Origin: Escherichia phage vB_EcoM_WFK
DNA length: 64,000 nucleotides
Strand: one strand, 5' to 3'
Sequence record: MK373775.1
Below, in pieces: positions 25,000-35,382 of this stretch. Each line of letters opens with the position of its first letter. Position 1 is the first letter of the stretch. Under the pieces are notes generated by a model. That model did no database searches. It was not told where the DNA came from and saw nothing but the letters and a program-made list of their open reading frames with translations. The position numbers and the translations under genes are program-made.

Positions 25000-26492
25000 T
25001 ATAAACCTGTCTGGGACCACGGTCCAAATACGTCTTCAAACGAATCCGCTTCTGTTTTATCAAAACGGAACCCTTTAATAATTGGGAGGAAAATACCTAC
25101 AGTGCCTTCACGTCCTTTAGAATGAACCCAACCATTGCATTCACAATCAGCAATACGTCCAATCAATTTACCTTCACGAGCTTCGGTCATTAATCGTTCA
25201 CGGTCCAAATCATGTCGCTCATCTAAAGGAATAAGAACCTTTACACCATCAACTGTTTTATGAGTTGTATCTTTAAACCCTGAACCACAATCGGTTGTAA
25301 TACGACGACAACGTGATACGAGTTCGACACCACCTAATTTGTTAGGGTCTTTAGAGTGTTCATAGTATCCTACAACTTCTAAAGCGATATCAATAACTTC
25401 TTTAAATTTAATTAGGTTCTTAGAACGTTTGTTTTCCCAATATGAATCACGGTTTTTAAGGATAATACCTTCAAGACCTTGGTCAACATATTTTTTATAA
25501 ACCACTTTAGCTTCGTCAAGATTACGAACTAACTGATTTTCAATTGGCTCAATTCGTTTAAAGCCTTCAGCCATATTTTCAAGAGCAGCAAAACGAACAT
25601 CGTATTTCTGACCTTTAATTTTGCCATCAGAATAGACTTCATCTAAAGGAACATAGTCCCAGGCTTGAAGAACCATACCTTCAGCTTCTTTAGGAGAAAT
25701 AGTCCCTTGAAGAGATTTATTTGCTAAACCGTTTGAAGTGCTACGGTCCGCAACTTGTACTTCTTCGGATTCTTCATTATCACCAAATAAGAACGACAGG
25801 TCATTTCCTGAGCTCACAGCCTTTTTAATATCAAATGAATGGTAAACTAATTCACCGTCGATTAAAACCCCATTAGGGTGTCTTTCACGAGCTTCTTTAG
25901 TCATTTCCATTAGTTCATCCGCTAATAGAGTAAGACCATGATATTCGTTGCCGGCACGAGAAAAGAATTGAACACCATCATCGCGAACTTCAGCGAAACA
26001 ACGAGCACCATCTGCTTTTAATTGGGCAAATGCGGGCCATTTAATATTTTTAGTAATCAATTTCTCGTCATATGCAGATGCTAACATCTGTGGTTGCAAT
26101 TGAATAAGTCCAGGCCACACCTTATTCGCGATAGACACTGAAGCACCTACTTCAAGATCGCGCATCATTACACGACGAAGGACTTCTACATCATCAGGTT
26201 TACCATCAGCGATATAACCCATGAGCTCTTTAATTGCAGCATTACCAGTGAGTTTACGAGTGGCTAATGTGAACTCAATAAAATCCAACATGTCATCTAA
26301 TTCAAGAAGACCATACGCTTGAGACCTTTCACCTGGTCCTGGCCATTTCTTAATATAATACTGGATACCACGTGCATATGTTAAACGATACACACGTTCA
26401 AGTAATTTGTTGTCCTTATTTTTCTTAAGGATTTCCTGTTTTGTTTTAGTAGAACCAATCGCAGCTATTTGGTTTAAAATATCTAAAATCAT
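24999..26492 (-). CDS. 30: ATP-dependent DNA ligase gp30
   Basis: 497 aa; adenylation motif KADGAR; N-terminus matches T4 ligase. Confidence 0.95.
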   Translation of the reverse strand: MILDILNQIAAIGSTKTKQEILKKNKDNKLLERVYRLTYARGIQYYIKKWPGPGERSQAYGLLELDDMLDFIEFTLATRKLTGNAAIKELMGYIADGKPDDVEVLRRVMMRDLEVGASVSIANKVWPGLIQLQPQMLASAYDEKLITKNIKWPAFAQLKADGARCFAEVRDDGVQFFSRAGNEYHGLTLLADELMEMTKEARERHPNGVLIDGELVYHSFDIKKAVSSGNDLSFLFGDNEESEEVQVADRSTSNGLANKSLQGTISPKEAEGMVLQAWDYVPLDEVYSDGKIKGQKYDVRFAALENMAEGFKRIEPIENQLVRNLDEAKVVYKKYVDQGLEGIILKNRDSYWENKRSKNLIKFKEVIDIALEVVGYYEHSKDPNKLGGVELVSRCRRITTDCGSGFKDTTHKTVDGVKVLIPLDERHDLDRERLMTEAREGKLIGRIADCECNGWVHSKGREGTVGIFLPIIKGFRFDKTEADSFEDVFGPWSQTGL

Positions 26493-26758
26493 TTGATGTC
26501 CTCGATTTTGGTTACGGTTCTATTATAAGCCACTTCATCTAGAAGCGATTTCAGCGTTTTCTGATAAGTTGTAATCCATTTACCGAGTCCTTCAACATAG
26601 TATTCTGAAATGTAGATGAACCCTTGTTCAACACACTCTTTAAATATTTCTGCGTCTTTTACTGAACGAAACAATGGCCAGTCTCGAAAGAACATGTTAA
26701 CGTGACCGTAGTCACGTGTGGTATTTTTGCCATCTGTAATATCATGAACTACAAACAT
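26489..26758 (-). CDS. hypothetical protein (30.1 position)
   Basis: 89-aa ORF, 4-nt overlap with ligase start. Confidence 0.5.
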   Translation of the reverse strand: MFVVHDITDGKNTTRDYGHVNMFFRDWPLFRSVKDAEIFKECVEQGFIYISEYYVEGLGKWITTYQKTLKSLLDEVAYNRTVTKIEDIK

Positions 26759-26767
26759 AATTAACCC

Positions 26768-27592
26768 TTAACAATTTATAGACCAAGTCCATTTAGACGA
26801 ATCTAAAGGAAAGTTTTGAATCGTCCACCACGGCTGCATATCAGTTGGTCCTGGGGTTCGCCAGGTATATGGAGTACGTGTTGTCGAGGGGCCACCAATT
26901 TGATTAGGCCATGCACCTGGACTTGTTGCACCAGATTCTTTAAGCAAATCCGCCAATCGTTTTAAAAGGTCTTCACGATCTGAATCTGAATTATTCTTAG
27001 GCAGAACCAAACGAGATTCAATATCATCCCACGTGTGTACACGTTGTGCAGTACGAGGAATGGCATCACGTTCACCACGAGCCAACCAATAAATCGGTAC
27101 ATTAAGAATTTCTGCCGCATGGTCACAATGATGAGCTAAATCGTCAACGTAACAAATTACGTTATATTTTGTTTTAGCTAGTTCGAATAATTGTTCCTTT
27201 GAAGAATCATGACCACACATCATTACTTCAGAGAAAGCGCCTGGGAACAAAGCATTCAAATTAAATTGTCTATTCAATCGAGCATCAATTGAATCACCTA
27301 GCGCCGTCACGGCTACAAAATTATAGTCTTCTTTTAGTTTATTGATAACTCGAAGAGCATCAGAATAAGGCGCTAAGTAACGAATAAAATCAGAGCTATT
27401 ATATTTTTCTATTAATTGTTTACCAAGGTTATCGTCGGTGTTGAACAGTTTACCAGGAGAAATAAATTTTTCGTCCTGAATCATTTTTAAAATATGTTCT
27501 AATGGAAGGTTATATTTTTGGGCAAAATAAGGAAGTCCAGATTGCCAGCTTAAACATACACCATCAATATCAGTCAAAATAGTAGGCTTCAT
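26768..27592 (-). CDS. HAD-superfamily-like hydrolase (30.2 position)
   Basis: N-terminal DxDGV motif (LTDIDGV) typical of HAD phosphatases. Confidence 0.5.
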   Translation of the reverse strand: MKPTILTDIDGVCLSWQSGLPYFAQKYNLPLEHILKMIQDEKFISPGKLFNTDDNLGKQLIEKYNSSDFIRYLAPYSDALRVINKLKEDYNFVAVTALGDSIDARLNRQFNLNALFPGAFSEVMMCGHDSSKEQLFELAKTKYNVICYVDDLAHHCDHAAEILNVPIYWLARGERDAIPRTAQRVHTWDDIESRLVLPKNNSDSDREDLLKRLADLLKESGATSPGAWPNQIGGPSTTRTPYTWRTPGPTDMQPWWTIQNFPLDSSKWTWSINC

Positions 27593-30936: not shown

Positions 30937-31269
30937 TCACTTATAAAGACACGGAATAGCTTTATAGTGGCATGTTACGAATTTCTGTTTAATTTCTTTA
31001 GGTTGTTTAAGTCCCAAAGCCACAAATGGATGTGGAACATTTCGAATTTGTCCAACTGGTAGTGGAGTCAAATCACCGACTTCAACAAAACCTTCAGGAA
31101 CATCAGGACCTACAGAATGAACTACACATAGTTCAGGAACTTCACCTTGAACACGTTTACCAATCACAAGTCCTGATTCGGTAACTTCTTCATCACCTGC
31201 TTGAGCGGGTTCAGAAACCAGAATGACATATTCACCAACAGCACGAATTGGGAGTTGTACTTCAGACAT
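30937..31269 (-). CDS. 31: co-chaperonin gp31 (GroES analogue)
   Basis: 110 aa; MotA-type promoter upstream; synteny. Confidence 0.88.
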
Positions 31270-31299
31270 CTTATTTCCTTGTTGTTTGACGATAGATTA

Positions 31300-31324
31300 A
31301 TAATACCATACTATTCGTAAAGCA
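31300..31324 (-). promoter_or_regulatory. MotA-dependent middle promoter candidate (gene 31)
   Basis: MotA box TGCTTTA 12 nt upstream of TATTAT. Confidence 0.45.
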
Positions 31325-31326
31325 TA

Positions 31327-31635
31327 TTACATAAGAAGCAAACGTTCTACCGGAGTACCATCAACCGAAATTACTTTATCAAGGCGGAAAGAACGCCACT
31401 GACCTAACTTGGTATCGAATGCTCGAACTGATTCACGAGGTTCAGAACGAACTTCTGATGCCGGATTGTTATTTTCATATTTGACTTCAAGTTCATCGCG
31501 AGAAGCAAACATAGTGCGTACCTCACCGTTAGCCTTTTCAAATACAACACAATGAACGCCTACAGACAGAATAGTTTTAATACGTTCACGAAGAACCATA
31601 GTTTCTTGTTCAGTTAAAATCATATTATTCACCAC
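31327..31635 (-). CDS. hypothetical protein (31.1 position)
   Basis: 102-aa ORF overlapping cd end. Confidence 0.5.
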   Translation of the reverse strand: MVNNMILTEQETMVLRERIKTILSVGVHCVVFEKANGEVRTMFASRDELEVKYENNNPASEVRSEPRESVRAFDTKLGQWRSFRLDKVISVDGTPVERLLLM

Positions 31636-32206
31636 AAAAGTTTCGGATTTGTTCCCAATTCAGAGAACGAAGATTATTACGAGAGTACTGAATTACTTCA
31701 ATACCGGCTTGTTTTAGAATGTCTGCCCAATTTTCAGGAGATCGGTCGTATAATTCTGCATATACAACCTTTTTAATACCTGACTGTGTAATAGCTTTAG
31801 TGCAATCAGGACACGGAGAAAGCGTCGTATATAACGTAGCACCTTCAATAGAATTACCTTTACGAGCTGCAAATAAAATTGCATTCAGTTCAGCATGGAT
31901 TTCATTATTAGCAGACCATGCACTATGAGCGGCCCGATGTTCTTTAGCCAAAACAAAATTATCCACCCGTCCAAATGCTGTAGTGCCTTCTTTATGCCCA
32001 GCAACGATGACCGGGCTTGGTTTATTCTTCAACCAACCGTTTTCGGATGCATGTTCGCAACAGTTTGTACCACCTGAAGGAGAGCCATTATAACCTGTAG
32101 AAATAATGCGTCCATCTTTTTCAATGACGGCGCCAACTTTCCATGAACAACATTTTGATTCTTGAGAAATCAGATATGCAATCTGAAGGTATGTGCTAGC
32201 TTTCAT
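31625..32206 (-). CDS. cd: dCMP deaminase
   Basis: 193 aa; zinc motifs HAE and PCPDC. Confidence 0.9.
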   Translation of the reverse strand: MKASTYLQIAYLISQESKCCSWKVGAVIEKDGRIISTGYNGSPSGGTNCCEHASENGWLKNKPSPVIVAGHKEGTTAFGRVDNFVLAKEHRAAHSAWSANNEIHAELNAILFAARKGNSIEGATLYTTLSPCPDCTKAITQSGIKKVVYAELYDRSPENWADILKQAGIEVIQYSRNNLRSLNWEQIRNFCGE

Positions 32207-33198
32207 TATTGAACCTTATTAATATAAGTTAACAGCTCTTTAGTTTGTTCCCAACTGATGCACGCATCGGTAACGGAAACGCCATAGGACATATTATCAG
32301 AAATTTTTTGATTTCCTTCATGTAGGAACGATTCTATCATAATTCCTTTGACCAAATCATTAGCTGCTAAATTTTTACCAATACCAATTTGATTGCTATA
32401 ATGCCCATCAGCGTTTGCATGGCTACAGTCAACCATTACATAATGATTCAGACCTACTGCCCTTGCTTTGTTAGAAGCTTCTTGAATATCAGAAGAATGA
32501 TAGTTCGGGCCGTTGGTCCCGCCACGCAATACGATATGCGTATTCTGATTACCTTCAGCTTCAACAATGCCTACAGTACCATCGACGTCCATACCCATAT
32601 ACCGATGAGGCCAGGCGGCACTATACATCGCGTCTATAGCTACTTTAATAGAACCATTGGTTGCGTTCTTGAAGCCTACGCACATCGGTAGACCTGAAGC
32701 AATTTCACGATGTGTCTGACTTTCAGTCGTACGGGCGCCAATAGCAACCCATGAGAAAATACCAGAAAGATACTTAATCGTGAATGGGTCTAATACTTCA
32801 GTTGCTAATGGAAGTCCCATACGTAGAAGTTTACGACACAATGTTCGTGCAACTATAAGACCGTGGTTCATATCAAAACTTCCGTCAAGATATGGATCAT
32901 TTACAAGACCTTTCCAACCTACGGTAGTTCGAGGCTTTTCAAAATAAACGCGCATCACTAACAGAACATTAGGAAGACGAGTTTGAAGTTCAGCCAGACG
33001 TTTGCCGTATTCAACAGCAGCAATAGGGTCATGAATTGAACAAGGACCTACAACGATAAGTTTGCGTGGGTCTTCACCATTCATAATCGAATTAACTTGT
33101 TCGCGATGAGAAGCCACTTGTGATGCGTAAGCTTCCGACAAAGGAATAATCTCAGCCAGTTCTTTTGGAGAAATAAGTTTTCCGACGACAGGTAACAT
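32206..33198 (-). CDS. 3-deoxy-D-arabino-heptulosonate-7-phosphate (DAHP) synthase, AroG/AroF/AroH class
   Basis: 330 aa; motifs GPCSIHD, KPRTTVGWKGL, GARTTESQ, DCSHAN, ESFLHEGNQ, TDACISWE align with E. coli AroG; AAGGA RBS. Confidence 0.9.
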   Translation of the reverse strand: MLPVVGKLISPKELAEIIPLSEAYASQVASHREQVNSIMNGEDPRKLIVVGPCSIHDPIAAVEYGKRLAELQTRLPNVLLVMRVYFEKPRTTVGWKGLVNDPYLDGSFDMNHGLIVARTLCRKLLRMGLPLATEVLDPFTIKYLSGIFSWVAIGARTTESQTHREIASGLPMCVGFKNATNGSIKVAIDAMYSAAWPHRYMGMDVDGTVGIVEAEGNQNTHIVLRGGTNGPNYHSSDIQEASNKARAVGLNHYVMVDCSHANADGHYSNQIGIGKNLAANDLVKGIMIESFLHEGNQKISDNMSYGVSVTDACISWEQTKELLTYINKVQ

Positions 33199-33206
33199 AA
33201 CAATCC

Positions 33207-33332
33207 TTAGGAGATATAAACAGATTCTGATTCAACAATACCTTTAACCGGATTAGACAGGCTAAGTTGGTAGTGCTCAGATTTATGACCATTCTCGATA
33301 GTAATGAGATAGCTCTCATTATAGTGTTCCAT
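33207..33332 (-). CDS. hypothetical small protein (start uncertain)
   Basis: ORF-track ORF overlaps upstream gene; internal ATG chosen. Confidence 0.3.
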   Translation of the reverse strand: MEHYNESYLITIENGHKSEHYQLSLSNPVKGIVESESVYIS

Positions 33333-33555
33333 ATACTCGAGTTGCTTCAACAAGACCATCACTGCATAATTTAAGATTAGTAATTTGGTCACCATCTTTA
33401 GGATTAACGATTATGAGAAAAGAACGTGGAGATTCTTGAATAACTCGTAATGTTGCATCTTGGAAACGTTCAGACACTTTATTGATGAGTGCTTGAGCAA
33501 ATTCTTTTACTTTAATCTGAAATTCGTGTACTGTAATTGGGTTTTCACTTAGCAT
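33319..33555 (-). CDS. hypothetical protein (78 aa)
   Basis: ATG start; early promoter upstream. Confidence 0.45.
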   Translation of the reverse strand: MLSENPITVHEFQIKVKEFAQALINKVSERFQDATLRVIQESPRSFLIIVNPKDGDQITNLKLCSDGLVEATRVYGTL

Positions 33556-33583
33556 TTCTATTTCCTCATTTGTTGGTAGAGTT

Positions 33584-33613
33584 ATAGTATCACAACTCCA
33601 CCATGTTGTAAAC
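33584..33613 (-). promoter_or_regulatory. T4-type early promoter
   Basis: GTTTAC, 17-nt spacer, ATACTAT. Confidence 0.5.
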
Positions 33614-33615
33614 CA

Positions 33616-33891
33616 TTAAATTGCTTTGCATTCAATTTTTTGTGTACCGAAATTGATATCACATTGGATAACTAAATCGCCGTCAAGATCAAATACCACG
33701 ATGACGTGTGCAGACCCAGGGAGAAGAGTAATAGCAATAGAATCTACTTGGTCTGGGAGCAAAGCATTGAGTACATGAGTTACTTGAGCATGAACTCTGA
33801 GTTCGGCTGCATTATCAAGCACTTCAAACATATTATTAGCAATAATCTGACTGAAGACTACCTTTACAATTTCAGAATAAGTTGGGAACAT
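33616..33891 (-). CDS. hypothetical protein (91 aa)
   Basis: ORF in cd-pseT hypervariable cluster. Confidence 0.45.
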   Translation of the reverse strand: MFPTYSEIVKVVFSQIIANNMFEVLDNAAELRVHAQVTHVLNALLPDQVDSIAITLLPGSAHVIVVFDLDGDLVIQCDINFGTQKIECKAI

Positions 33892-33898
33892 AATTACC

Positions 33899-34123
33899 TC
33901 AGTGCACAGTATTTACTTTAACTCGAACAACAAATCGCTCGGTTGGTTCACCTACAGGAACAAACTCTACATGATATTCACCTTTGTAACGAGTATTCAG
34001 ATCATTACGAATTCCTGCGAGTTTGTTGATTAATGTAGGACTCATATTAAGTCCCACTAGTTTACGAAGCATTTTGTATGCTTCATCTTCGATTTCATGA
34101 TGTTTATCGTACATAGTTTTCAT
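33899..34123 (-). CDS. hypothetical protein (74 aa)
   Basis: ORF in cd-pseT cluster. Confidence 0.45.
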   Translation of the reverse strand: MKTMYDKHHEIEDEAYKMLRKLVGLNMSPTLINKLAGIRNDLNTRYKGEYHVEFVPVGEPTERFVVRVKVNTVH

Positions 34124-34295
34124 TTAACCATTCAATTGCCTGGTCGACGTTATCAAATATACCGCCGTCCAAACGTTCTTCATGCTCATAGTCCAGCACA
34201 TCAATACCGAACTGTCCATTTACTAAAGGCCAGGCAACAAACAAATATTCTTTATGCTGTTCGATGGCCTCAATCACTTCATATAATCGTTTCAT
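34104..34295 (-). CDS. hypothetical protein (63 aa)
   Basis: ORF abutting pseT start. Confidence 0.4.
   Translation of the reverse strand: MKRLYEVIEAIEQHKEYLFVAWPLVNGQFGIDVLDYEHEERLDGGIFDNVDQAIEWLNENYVR

Positions 34296-35382
<1,087 letters not shown>

Follow-up and report, generated by a model that had tools for sequence, protein, structure and literature searches.

An AroF-like DAHP synthase with a remodelled feedback site in T4-like phages that carry a U32 gene beside the 5-hydroxy-dCMP synthase gene, and its possible role in prephenate supply

Cellular proteins of the U32 family hydroxylate RNA and quinones in a prephenate-dependent manner. RlhA makes 5-hydroxycytidine (ho5C) in 23S rRNA and requires prephenate and Fe-S clusters (PMC5727448), TrhP provides a prephenate-dependent route to 5-hydroxyuridine (ho5U) in tRNA as an alternative to the O2-dependent TrhO (PMC6599085), and in the O2-independent hydroxylations by UbiU/UbiV prephenate is the oxygen donor, a role that the authors predict for other U32 proteins as well (PMC10990095). 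Hydroxylated cytosine is also found in the DNA of Mosigvirus, in the form of arabinosylated 5-hydroxycytosine (5hoC), for which arabinose is obtained from ribulose-5-phosphate (Ru5P) via a phage arabinose-5-phosphate isomerase and uridine diphosphate (UDP)-arabinofuranose; in RB69, 5hoC is made aerobically by a flavin ThyA homologue using O2, and gp50, the product of a U32 gene, is listed by the authors who described the cluster as a 'sugar or heterocycle reductase', without discussion (PMC13326640). Here we analyse a stretch of 64,000 nucleotides from Escherichia phage vB_EcoM_WFK (MK373775.1), referred to below as the window, and within it a gene for a 3-deoxy-7-phosphoheptulonate synthase (DAHP synthase, DAHPS) located at 32206..33198 on the minus strand, encoding a 330-aa protein with an ATG start that is of type I-alpha and AroF-like. 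The window region is 100% identical to Mosigvirus vB_EcoM_WFL6982 (MK373774). We report that this enzyme belongs to a phage clade with a remodelled feedback site, and propose tentatively that it provides prephenate to a phage U32 protein.

An earlier note on this DNA, made without database searches, had taken the open reading frame (ORF) for a class I DAHP synthase that looked catalytically intact, and profile searches and alignment confirmed the assignment. The protein matched DAHP synthase families far above their cut-offs, namely Pfam DAHP_synth_1 (PF00793; E=6e-76, 255 bits against a cut-off of 25.5), NCBIfam TIGR00034 aroFGH (430.6 bits against 173.2) and the AroF-type subfamily PRK12755 (456 bits against 343), and it matched PHROG 5045 ('phospho-2-dehydro-3-deoxyheptonate aldolase') over its full length, residues 1-330, with E=2e-182. 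The KPRTT motif (residues 88-92; 32923..32937, minus strand), which forms the phosphate-binding loop for erythrose-4-phosphate (E4P) and phosphoenolpyruvate (PEP) and sets DAHP synthases apart from 3-deoxy-D-manno-octulosonate 8-phosphate synthases, is present, as is GARTTESQ at residues 154-161. When aligned with AroF, AroG and AroH of E. coli MG1655, the metal ligands C53, H260, E289 and D311 correspond to AroG C61, H268, E302 and D326, the PEP ligands R83, K88, G154-A155-R156, K177 and R225 correspond to AroG R92, K97, G163-A164-R165, K186 and R234, and the metal, PEP and E4P residues are all invariant between the phage enzyme and the three host isozymes. An AlphaFold2 (AF2) model with a mean predicted local distance difference test score (pLDDT) of 92.4 shows a (beta/alpha)8 barrel with the beta6a/6b insertion (strands 198-203 and 209-214), and Foldseek superposed it on 4HSO, 8E0U, 1GG1 and 1KFL, solved structures that include NmeDAH7PS and E. 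coli AroG, with a template-modelling (TM) score of 0.96 and a root-mean-square deviation of 1.3-1.5 Å. The ratio of nonsynonymous to synonymous substitution rates (dN/dS) between genera is 0.14-0.21, with synonymous sites close to saturation. The phage DAHPS therefore looks catalytically intact by its conserved residues, and it is expected to convert PEP and E4P to DAHP.

The earlier note had further called the enzyme AroG-type, and this label had to be abandoned. The protein scored 365 bits with the AroG equivalog NF006723, under its cut-off of 568, its best sequence match in the PDB was E. coli AroF (6AGL/6AGM; 357 bits, against 311 bits for AroG), and a neighbour-joining tree grouped it with AroF-like sequences. 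The profile of the Trp-sensitive AroH (NF009396) likewise gave a score under its cut-off (388.8 bits against 463), and the position equivalent to AroG S211 holds a Gly (G202), as in Tyr-type enzymes, where AroG has Ser. Phage DAHPS is ~51% identical to E. coli AroF and shares with it the fold, the length class and the catalytic residues, and differs in being borne by a lytic phage and expressed alongside nucleotide-metabolism genes. A search of 5.8 billion proteins recovered phage-type DAHPS at 57-98% identity and 319-343 aa, separated by a gap from cellular sequences, the best of which were ~52-55% identical and at least 341 aa long. In the neighbour-joining tree, run against AroF, AroG and AroH as the earlier note had suggested, the phage sequences were monophyletic in 100/100 bootstraps, among AroF-like sequences and apart from AroG and AroH, and by this evidence the phage copies are one old clade. 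Because identity to cellular proteins is low, the phage copies are monophyletic and the GC content is phage-like (0.41 in the gene, 0.36-0.42 in its flanks and 0.38 in the window), host contamination and recent host capture were both rejected; the former had already been dismissed in the earlier note, and the same slot is occupied in many genera.

As to whether the gene had been described before, a point the earlier note had left open, tblastn with DAHPS returned 212 phage records, many already annotated as DAHPS (>100 phage genomes). In the literature that could be searched in full text, functional work on phage DAHP synthases was not found, nor was any paper that connects phage 5hoC with U32, prephenate or chorismate mutase; the sole mention of the gene is one passing sentence in the phiC120 genome paper (PMC8022965). 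As a bare annotation the gene is thus already known; what is new here is the altered feedback site and the link to 5hoC and U32. Two further groups of DAHPS genes were seen. Aeromonas phage HJ05 (79 kb, not T4-like) carries an independent, cellular-like DAHPS of 387 aa that is 38% identical (L027:6257-7420), with a methyltransferase, an Acb2/Tad1-like anti-defence gene and an Asn-synthase-like gene as neighbours and no U32 or chorismate mutase gene nearby. Many contigs of giant-virus metagenome-assembled genomes ('GVMAG'; IMG/VR loci L042-L107) have DAHPS genes 40-50% identical to the phage enzyme, which are either genuine viral genes or binned cellular DNA.

The allosteric site of the E. coli enzymes has been probed extensively by mutation. 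The inhibitor is contacted by AroG Q151 and AroF Q152; AroG D146N and P150L are fully resistant to inhibition by Phe, S180F, L175D, L179A, F209A/S and V221A are feedback-resistant, and A202T and M147I are partially so (PMC9529685). In AroG numbering, the phage DAHPS has I141 at P150, K142 at Q151, G146 at D155, P171 at S180, S193 at A202 and Y200 at F209, which in terms of AroF amounts to the pocket replacements P151 to I, Q152 to K, D156 to G, S181 to P, A203 to S and F210 to Y. The Ile-Lys pair that replaces the Pro-Gln of the allosteric pocket (AroG P150-Q151, AroF P151-Q152) is encoded at 32773..32778 on the minus strand. No equivalents of AroG D6/D7/I10 or of AroF N8/I11 remain at the shortened N-terminus: it has nine fewer residues than AroF and counts 8 residues up to the equivalent of AroG L17 against 16 in AroG, which agrees with the shortening of about 8 residues claimed in the earlier note. 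The protein as a whole is 20 residues shorter than AroG (330 against 350), and small deletions before helix alpha8 and near the C-terminus also distinguish it from AroF. An intact Tyr feedback site, comprising N-terminal residues ~4-13, P151-Q152, S181 and F210, is therefore absent from the phage DAHPS.

These positions were compared over 120 homologues, 24 from the phage clade and 96 cellular. The residues before the AroG-L17 equivalent numbered 6-10 in all 24 phage-clade proteins and at least 14 in all 96 cellular ones. Within the phage clade, P150 is replaced by Ile in 22/24, Q151 by Lys in 23/24 (Arg in the other one) and D155 by Gly in 23/24, and the changes of S180 to Pro, A202 to Ser and F209 to Tyr are found in 24/24; the full I-K/G/P/S/Y signature is present in 22/24, and the two deepest members of the clade have I-R with N, or P-K. 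The cellular proteins without exception have Gln at 151, Ser at 180 and Pro or Val at 150, and nearly always Phe at 209 (95/96) and Asp at 155 (93/96), so that the Ile-Lys pair at 150-151 occurs in 22/24 phage-clade and 0/96 cellular proteins. Since the N-terminal cap is lost and the pocket is changed at resistance positions while the active site is untouched, we predict that the phage DAHPS is insensitive to aromatic amino acids and regard this as likely; the suggestion of a de-regulated enzyme in the earlier note is strengthened accordingly. The phage enzyme resembles engineered or selected AroG variants (P150L, D146N, S180F, L175D, F209A) in being changed at 150, 180, 209 and 202, and it resembles N-terminally engineered DAHP synthase variants in that the N-terminal segment is absent. 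An N-terminally engineered, feedback-resistant DAHP synthase was reportedly described by Zhang et al. in 2014, a paper listed in PMC5879953. Where engineered AroG has single laboratory mutations, the phage enzyme combines several changes that are fixed and conserved throughout a natural clade; the residues chosen differ (Ile and not Leu at 150, Pro and not Phe at 180), and resistance is predicted.

We then consider the U32 gene and its neighbours. In this phage the U32 gene lies at 26318-27478 of MK373774, beside the gene for the ThyA-like 5-hydroxy-deoxycytidine monophosphate (dCMP) synthase, and its RB69 orthologue, gp50, matches Pfam Peptidase_U32 with 42 bits against a cut-off of 22.4. The central Cys of the phage U32 proteins aligns with all four E. 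coli U32 proteins. Across genera the phage U32 proteins (L012:2493-3662, L013:18138-19298, L014:5001-6173 and L015:6319-7479) are 86-99% identical, against 56-80% for DAHPS, cd and pseT from the same genera, and end in the conserved motif DCANEICGSTCTYCE; for a protein with no assigned function such conservation is unusually strong. In Kanagawavirus Entb_45 the ORF between the U32 and ThyA-like genes is annotated as a chorismate mutase and has a 4-nt overlap with each neighbour; its orthologue in Klebsiella phage P545 matches Pfam CM_2 (PF01817) with 39.5 bits against a cut-off of 27, and Proteus phage Pm5461 has a 128-aa CM_2 protein (46.8 bits) at the same position of the cluster. With the exception of Mosigvirus, all U32-positive genera checked have a chorismate mutase gene between their U32 and ThyA-like genes. 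A tblastn search with the mutase gave 51 phage records, with Pm5461 in addition: 18 from Klebsiella, 7 from Serratia, 6 from Yersinia, 4 from Enterobacter, 3 each from Edwardsiella and Erwinia, 2 each from Pectobacterium, EcS1, Shewanella and Providencia, and at least 1 each from Morganella and Kosakonia. The mutase adjoins the ThyA-like and/or the U32 gene in all informatively annotated rows among the matches listed, all its relatives in the protein database carry PF01817, and in an alignment by eye the phage mutases keep the equivalents of EcCM R11, R28, K39, E52, S84 and Q88. In Mosigvirus the mutase slot is taken by gp49, a 79-aa, all-helical, Mosigvirus-restricted protein (26082-26321 of MK373774, L015:6083-6322; L012:2257-2496 in RB69) whose AF2 model has a pLDDT of 63, and which is either a replacement or an extreme divergence of chorismate mutase. 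The cluster of Klebsiella P545 (Marfavirus; L013:15464-21131) is of the 5hoC type and contains an AfhE-like nucleotidyltransferase/kinase gene and the U32, chorismate mutase and ThyA-like genes, with no arabinose-5-phosphate isomerase; host KdsD/GutQ may substitute for the latter, or the phage may employ a different sugar.

The distribution of DAHPS followed that of the U32 gene closely. Altogether, tblastn found DAHPS in 212 and U32 in 221 phage records, and when these were sorted by the host word in the record name the respective numbers were 124 and 136 for Escherichia, 25 and 26 for Klebsiella, 12 and 14 for Shigella, 7 and 7 for Proteus, 6 and 7 for Serratia, 4 and 4 for Enterobacter and 3 and 3 for Edwardsiella. 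For comparison, a T4-type cd gene is present in 1,216 phage records, 593 of them from Escherichia and 161 from Klebsiella. U32 or its adjacent chorismate mutase was seen directly in 13 of 16 sampled DAHPS phages outside Mosigvirus, no T4-like phage with DAHPS and without U32 was seen among those sampled, and DAHPS is seemingly confined to T4-like phages in which a U32 gene lies beside the 5-hydroxy-dCMP synthase gene. NCBI taxonomy puts four of the DAHPS genera in Tevenvirinae, with Bragavirus elsewhere in Straboviridae and Marfavirus unplaced. Tequatrovirus ECO4, the one Tequatrovirus genome checked, lacks U32 and has no DAHPS in the slot. Its pseT is nevertheless 79.7% identical to that of Mosigvirus, against 44-66% for DAHPS-bearing genera, and its cd, at 71.5%, is in the middle of their range (62-79%); this closeness in the absence of DAHPS indicates that the trait is not a simple deep split. 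Acinetobacter phage DLP1 has the same arabinosyl-5hoC cluster with a HAD phosphatase gene followed directly by the ThyA-like gene, and with no U32 and no mutase gene, and tblastn found no phage-type DAHPS in Acinetobacter phages. Acinetobacter hosts are strict aerobes. A strict coupling of DAHPS to arabinose-5-phosphate isomerase, or to the arabinose pathway, was considered and rejected, the association being loose both ways: most DAHPS phages carry the isomerase, it is also found in 57 Acinetobacter and 6 Yersinia phage records, and RB69 DNA is arabinosylated with no DAHPS in the slot.

Given that cellular U32 enzymes use prephenate, that DAHPS and U32 co-distribute and that the mutase lies within the U32 cluster, we propose the following role for the phage enzyme. 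DAHPS would be made early in infection together with cd and pseT and, being free of feedback, would restore flux into the shikimate pathway of the host at times when the host isozymes are shut off by Phe, Tyr and Trp. Host AroB through AroC would carry DAHP on to chorismate, a phage or host chorismate mutase would convert chorismate to prephenate, and the phage U32 protein, presumably of Fe-S type, would use prephenate as oxygen donor to form 5-hydroxycytosine without O2, as in the gut. This would constitute a second, O2-independent route to 5hoC beside the O2/flavin ThyA-like enzyme, in phages of facultative anaerobes. Between central metabolism and prephenate, E. coli applies feedback control and repression to DAHP synthase and to the PheA/TyrA chorismate mutase domains, and the phages would encode both controlled steps, as DAHPS and chorismate mutase, in a minimal, regulator-free form. 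There are ~62,000 cytosines per genome; with all of them replaced by arabinosylated 5-hydroxycytosine and a burst of ~100, millions of prephenate molecules would be needed per cell, and the demand would arise exactly when exogenous aromatic amino acids close the host pathway. That the purpose of DAHPS is the bulk supply of prephenate for U32-based 5hoC synthesis is a reading to which we give a chance just short of even. The wider proposition, in which T4-like phages run an O2-independent 5hoC route with oxygen from prephenate via U32, paid for by the deregulated DAHPS and, in most genera, a minimal AroQ mutase, is put forward more cautiously, as a possibility to be taken seriously.

The parallel with RlhA, TrhP and UbiU-UbiV is that the phage U32 gene adjoins a gene for a pyrimidine C5-hydroxylating enzyme and that the phages also encode enzymes on the supply route to prephenate, DAHPS and chorismate mutase; in addition, the pairs TrhO/TrhP and UbiH,F,I/UbiU,V, with their dual O2-dependent and O2-independent routes, are matched by the proposed phage pair. 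The phage U32 proteins differ from them in Cys layout, and their putative substrate would be a deoxynucleotide or DNA. To our knowledge, no cellular U32 system brings its own DAHP synthase. Bacterial fusions and clusters of DAHPS with chorismate mutase (PRK12595; the aroF-tyrA operon) resemble the phage arrangement in that a DAHPS and an AroQ mutase in one genome steer flux to prephenate, and differ from it in that the phage genes are ~100 kb apart, the mutase is a free protein of 79-128 aa in a DNA-modification operon, and Mosigvirus is without a recognisable one.

Several observations weigh against the prephenate proposal. RB69, Yersinia phiR1-RT (Tegunavirus) and Pectobacterium PM2 (Mosugukvirus) are U32-positive with no DAHPS in the slot, and its absence there implies that DAHPS is dispensable, at least in the laboratory. 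The co-distribution is built on organism-name tallies and sampled rows and comprises few independent evolutionary events; DAHPS lies ~100 kb away from the U32 cluster; and no independent phage gain of DAHPS with U32 or chorismate mutase nearby was found in HJ05 or among 80 IMG/VR loci with DAHPS, where the gene occurred only in T4-like slots or in cellular-like contexts (GVMAG bins, aroF-tyrA-like). Identity of the phage U32 proteins to RlhA, TrhP and UbiU/V amounts to only 16-23%; they lack the upstream Cys pair of UbiU and have the C-terminal Cys-rich motif DCANEICGSTCTYCE added. The published label of gp50, 'sugar or heterocycle reductase', also counts against the proposal. The idea that gp49 is a diverged chorismate mutase found no backing (hhalign probability 0.1, a poor pairwise alignment and no Pfam match), and with no recognisable mutase in Mosigvirus the host PheA/TyrA mutases would have to serve. 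Finally, the DAHPS activity, its feedback insensitivity and the use of prephenate by the phage U32 protein are all inferred.

Of the other explanations, one that we consider doubtful, if a genuine possibility, is that DAHPS is a generic auxiliary metabolic gene, a deregulated enzyme that raises Phe, Tyr and Trp for phage protein synthesis after host transcription shut-off and has no link to DNA modification. DAHPS commits carbon to aromatic amino-acid synthesis and is its most tightly controlled step, the PHROGs category of the family is 'moron, auxiliary metabolic gene and host takeover', the altered pocket fits a need for flux whatever the end-product levels, the chorismate mutase of the sister phages is also on the Phe/Tyr route, and RB69 can dispense with DAHPS. 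Such a role leaves unexplained, however, why the gene is restricted to ~200 of ~1,216 T4-like records and tracks the U32/5hoC cluster and not the host, only 25 of the 161 Klebsiella and ~124 of the 593 Escherichia phage records having it, and why translational coupling joins the chorismate mutase gene to those for U32 and the 5-hydroxy-dCMP synthase; moreover, insensitivity has its greatest effect under an ample supply of aromatic amino acids, just when further synthesis for protein is least needed. It is also conceivable, though improbable, that the pocket has been re-tuned to another allosteric ligand (prephenate, chorismate or a nucleotide) bound by K142, which would be compatible with either a prephenate or an amino-acid purpose. 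The replacement residues are kept across genera that are 56-77% identical (I141 in 22/24, K142 and G146 in 23/24, P171, S193 and Y200 in 24/24), and such conservation suggests that a particular new pocket was selected for and that the site did not simply decay; the model likewise retains the beta6a/6b regulatory hairpin. Against this, the N-terminal strand that closes the site in AroG/AroF is missing in all phage copies, and the proposed ligand is hypothetical.

The earlier note had raised, as one hypothesis, a boost of host chorismate for p-aminobenzoic acid (pABA) and folate, serving td and frd, which now appears very improbable. Chorismate is the precursor of pABA, and the note's statement that td and frd share the early region holds in so far as, by homology to phage 348Ecol098PP, they run in the same direction in one long early region; they are ~11-14 kb upstream and not adjacent. 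The extra pathway gene of the sister phages is, however, a chorismate mutase, which leads to prephenate and draws chorismate away from pABA/folate and from tryptophan, no pabA/B/C or fol genes were seen near DAHPS, and demand should be small for a cofactor that acts catalytically. The slot is also without DAHPS in Tequatrovirus (one genome checked), phages that share the homologous early region and encode td, frd and a folate-dependent dCMP hydroxymethylase, and the DAHPS phages make 5hoC by a flavin/O2 enzyme and not by a folate enzyme (PMC13326640). We give just as little weight, if not slightly less, to a drain on carbon, in which consumption of E4P and PEP would pull transketolase towards pentose phosphates for Ru5P, arabinose-5-phosphate and UDP-arabinose, and for nucleotides, or in which DAHPS would itself condense arabinose-5-phosphate. 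The same phages arabinosylate every cytosine with UDP-arabinofuranose derived from Ru5P (PMC13326640) and most DAHPS phages have the isomerase, yet the isomerase records from Acinetobacter (57) and Yersinia (6) come with no phage-type DAHPS in Acinetobacter phages and none in the slot of phiR1-RT, Marfavirus P545 is DAHPS-positive although its cluster downstream of the DNA polymerase gene contains no isomerase, KPRTT is the motif of DAHP synthases that use E4P, and the chorismate mutase would go unexplained. A non-functional hitch-hiker, or assembly or host contamination, could be suspected from the short repeats that flank the cassette described below and from its absence in RB69, but the ORF is intact in ~200 genomes, with the low dN/dS and phage-like GC given above, and is coupled to cd, the slot is kept in uncultured T4-like contigs as well as in at least 7 genera, and a deposited phage genome matches the window with 100% identity; this reading is effectively refuted and its probability negligible.

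The genetic context of DAHPS was next compared between phages. The earlier note had located the gene between cd and the pseT module; the interval is the same, and the precise slot is between cd.2 and cd. On the minus strand, the upstream edge of this variable cd.x interval is formed by pseT, a polynucleotide kinase/phosphatase gene (34296..35195; HAD_PNKP and AAA_33), followed by three small ORFs homologous to cd.4, ORF227 and cd.3 that lie between pseT and cd.2, by cd.2 itself (33319..33555; DUF7320, phrog_1504), which is the upstream neighbour of DAHPS kept in all genera examined, and by a 41-aa ORF (33207..33332; phrog_15876) that in the ORF listing has 62 aa and extends to 33395. Downstream of DAHPS come the dCMP deaminase gene cd (31625..32206; dCMP_cyt_deam_1), a WYL_2 protein gene and then gp31, all on the minus strand. 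The stop codon of DAHPS overlaps the start of cd in TAATG (32204..32208, minus strand; CATTA on the plus strand), an arrangement of translational coupling, and a Shine-Dalgarno sequence AAGGA (33204..33208, minus strand; TCCTT on the plus strand) precedes the DAHPS ATG by 5 nt and is overlapped by the TAA stop of the 41-aa ORF (33207-33209). Both signals had been read correctly in the earlier note, and its view that the gene is built into the early transcription unit is borne out by the cd and pseT neighbours on the same strand and by the cd overlap. No promoter or terminator site of the cassette's own was found around DAHPS above shuffled expectation, as would fit transcription by read-through within the early cd/pseT unit.

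Comparison with RB69, the type Mosigvirus, defined the inserted segment. In the RB69 annotation cd.2 abuts cd and DAHPS is absent from the slot, and blastn homology between the window and RB69 spans only 31001-32209 and 33304-35300 in this region, with break points at 32209/32210 and 33303/33304, so that a 1,094-bp cassette (32210..33303, minus strand) comprising the 41-aa ORF and DAHPS is missing from RB69, which is collinear apart from it. Each end of the cassette carries a copy of an imperfect direct repeat, ATAATGA(A/G)AGCTA, that corresponds to the junction of the cd.2 stop with the cd start; the right-hand copy has the core ATAATGAAAGCTA at the cd start (32191..32209, minus strand) and the left-hand copy the core ATAATGAGAGCTA, containing the cd.2 stop and a duplicated orphan cd start (33304..33322, minus strand). 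A 55-aa ORF at 33152-33319 (minus strand) begins with this orphan start (ATGAGAGCTA...), made by the cassette insertion, and is probably not a gene. By blastp the 41-aa ORF is 51% identical over 39 aa to the C-terminus of cd.2 from Kanagawavirus Entb_45, and no match at E<=10 was obtained with the window's own cd.2 as subject. On this similarity we regard the ORF as the remnant of the 3′ half of a foreign cd.2 brought in with the cassette, and its resemblance to the Kanagawavirus gene implies that the cassette came from another T4-like phage in which DAHPS already stood after cd.2. Judged from these sequences, Mosigvirus gained the DAHPS cassette separately from a Kanagawavirus-like donor, which makes this a second acquisition by a lineage that has U32. 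Mosigvirus cd is closest to that of Kanagawavirus (78.8%) and the nearby pseT to that of Tequatrovirus (79.7%), a mosaic that fits recombination around the cassette.

Elsewhere the order cd.2, DAHPS, 0-2 small ORFs or a homing endonuclease gene, and cd was found in at least 7 genera; the slot was seen in Mosigvirus, Kanagawavirus (Entb_45, PEi26), Kagamiyamavirus (EcS1), Winklervirus (CHI14), Marfavirus (P545) and Bragavirus (PM2), and also in two deep-branching uncultured T4-like contigs. A pathway partner directly downstream of DAHPS in other genera, such as a chorismate mutase or a regulatory domain, was looked for and rejected, the position being held by a homing endonuclease gene (Klebsiella P545) or by small unassigned ORFs. 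Free-standing homing endonuclease genes lie beside DAHPS in the cd-pseT interval of P545 (L006:4980-5549) and of Proteus PM2 (L008:2606-3322), and such endonucleases could plausibly carry the cassette from one co-infecting T4-like phage to another. In phage 348Ecol098PP, a close relative, in the region homologous to the part of the window upstream of pseT, nrdB and td are each split by intron-associated endonuclease genes (L001; 25337-27606 and 30260-32136).

Classical auxiliary metabolic genes of phages are talC, zwf and gnd of cyanophages, which reroute the pentose-phosphate pathway. DAHPS is like these in being a host-derived metabolic enzyme kept by a lytic phage that redirects host flux in infection, and unlike them in that it targets the entry to the shikimate pathway, has a predicted loss of allosteric control and shows an apparent tie to DNA hypermodification. 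As a natural, evolutionarily fixed enzyme altered at the very positions mutated by metabolic engineers, it is a ready-made candidate for a feedback-resistant DAHP synthase, and its clade offers a test of how a type I-alpha regulatory site can be lost or re-purposed. The distribution of DAHPS ties a gene of primary metabolism to arabinosyl-5-hydroxycytosine hypermodification, which decides how sensitive therapeutic Mosigvirus, Marfavirus and related phages are to restriction, CRISPR and other defences. If the link between prephenate and U32 is true, it would explain how gut phages hydroxylate cytosine without oxygen, which the published O2/flavin mechanism does not address, and it would extend the chemistry of prephenate as oxygen donor from RNA and quinones to viral DNA. 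These phages would then be the first viruses to use such 'organic O donor' chemistry, with the shikimate pathway as the oxygen-donor supply line for DNA hypermodification, and phage fitness would depend on oxygen and on aromatic amino acids, a dependence that would matter for phage therapy in the anoxic gut.

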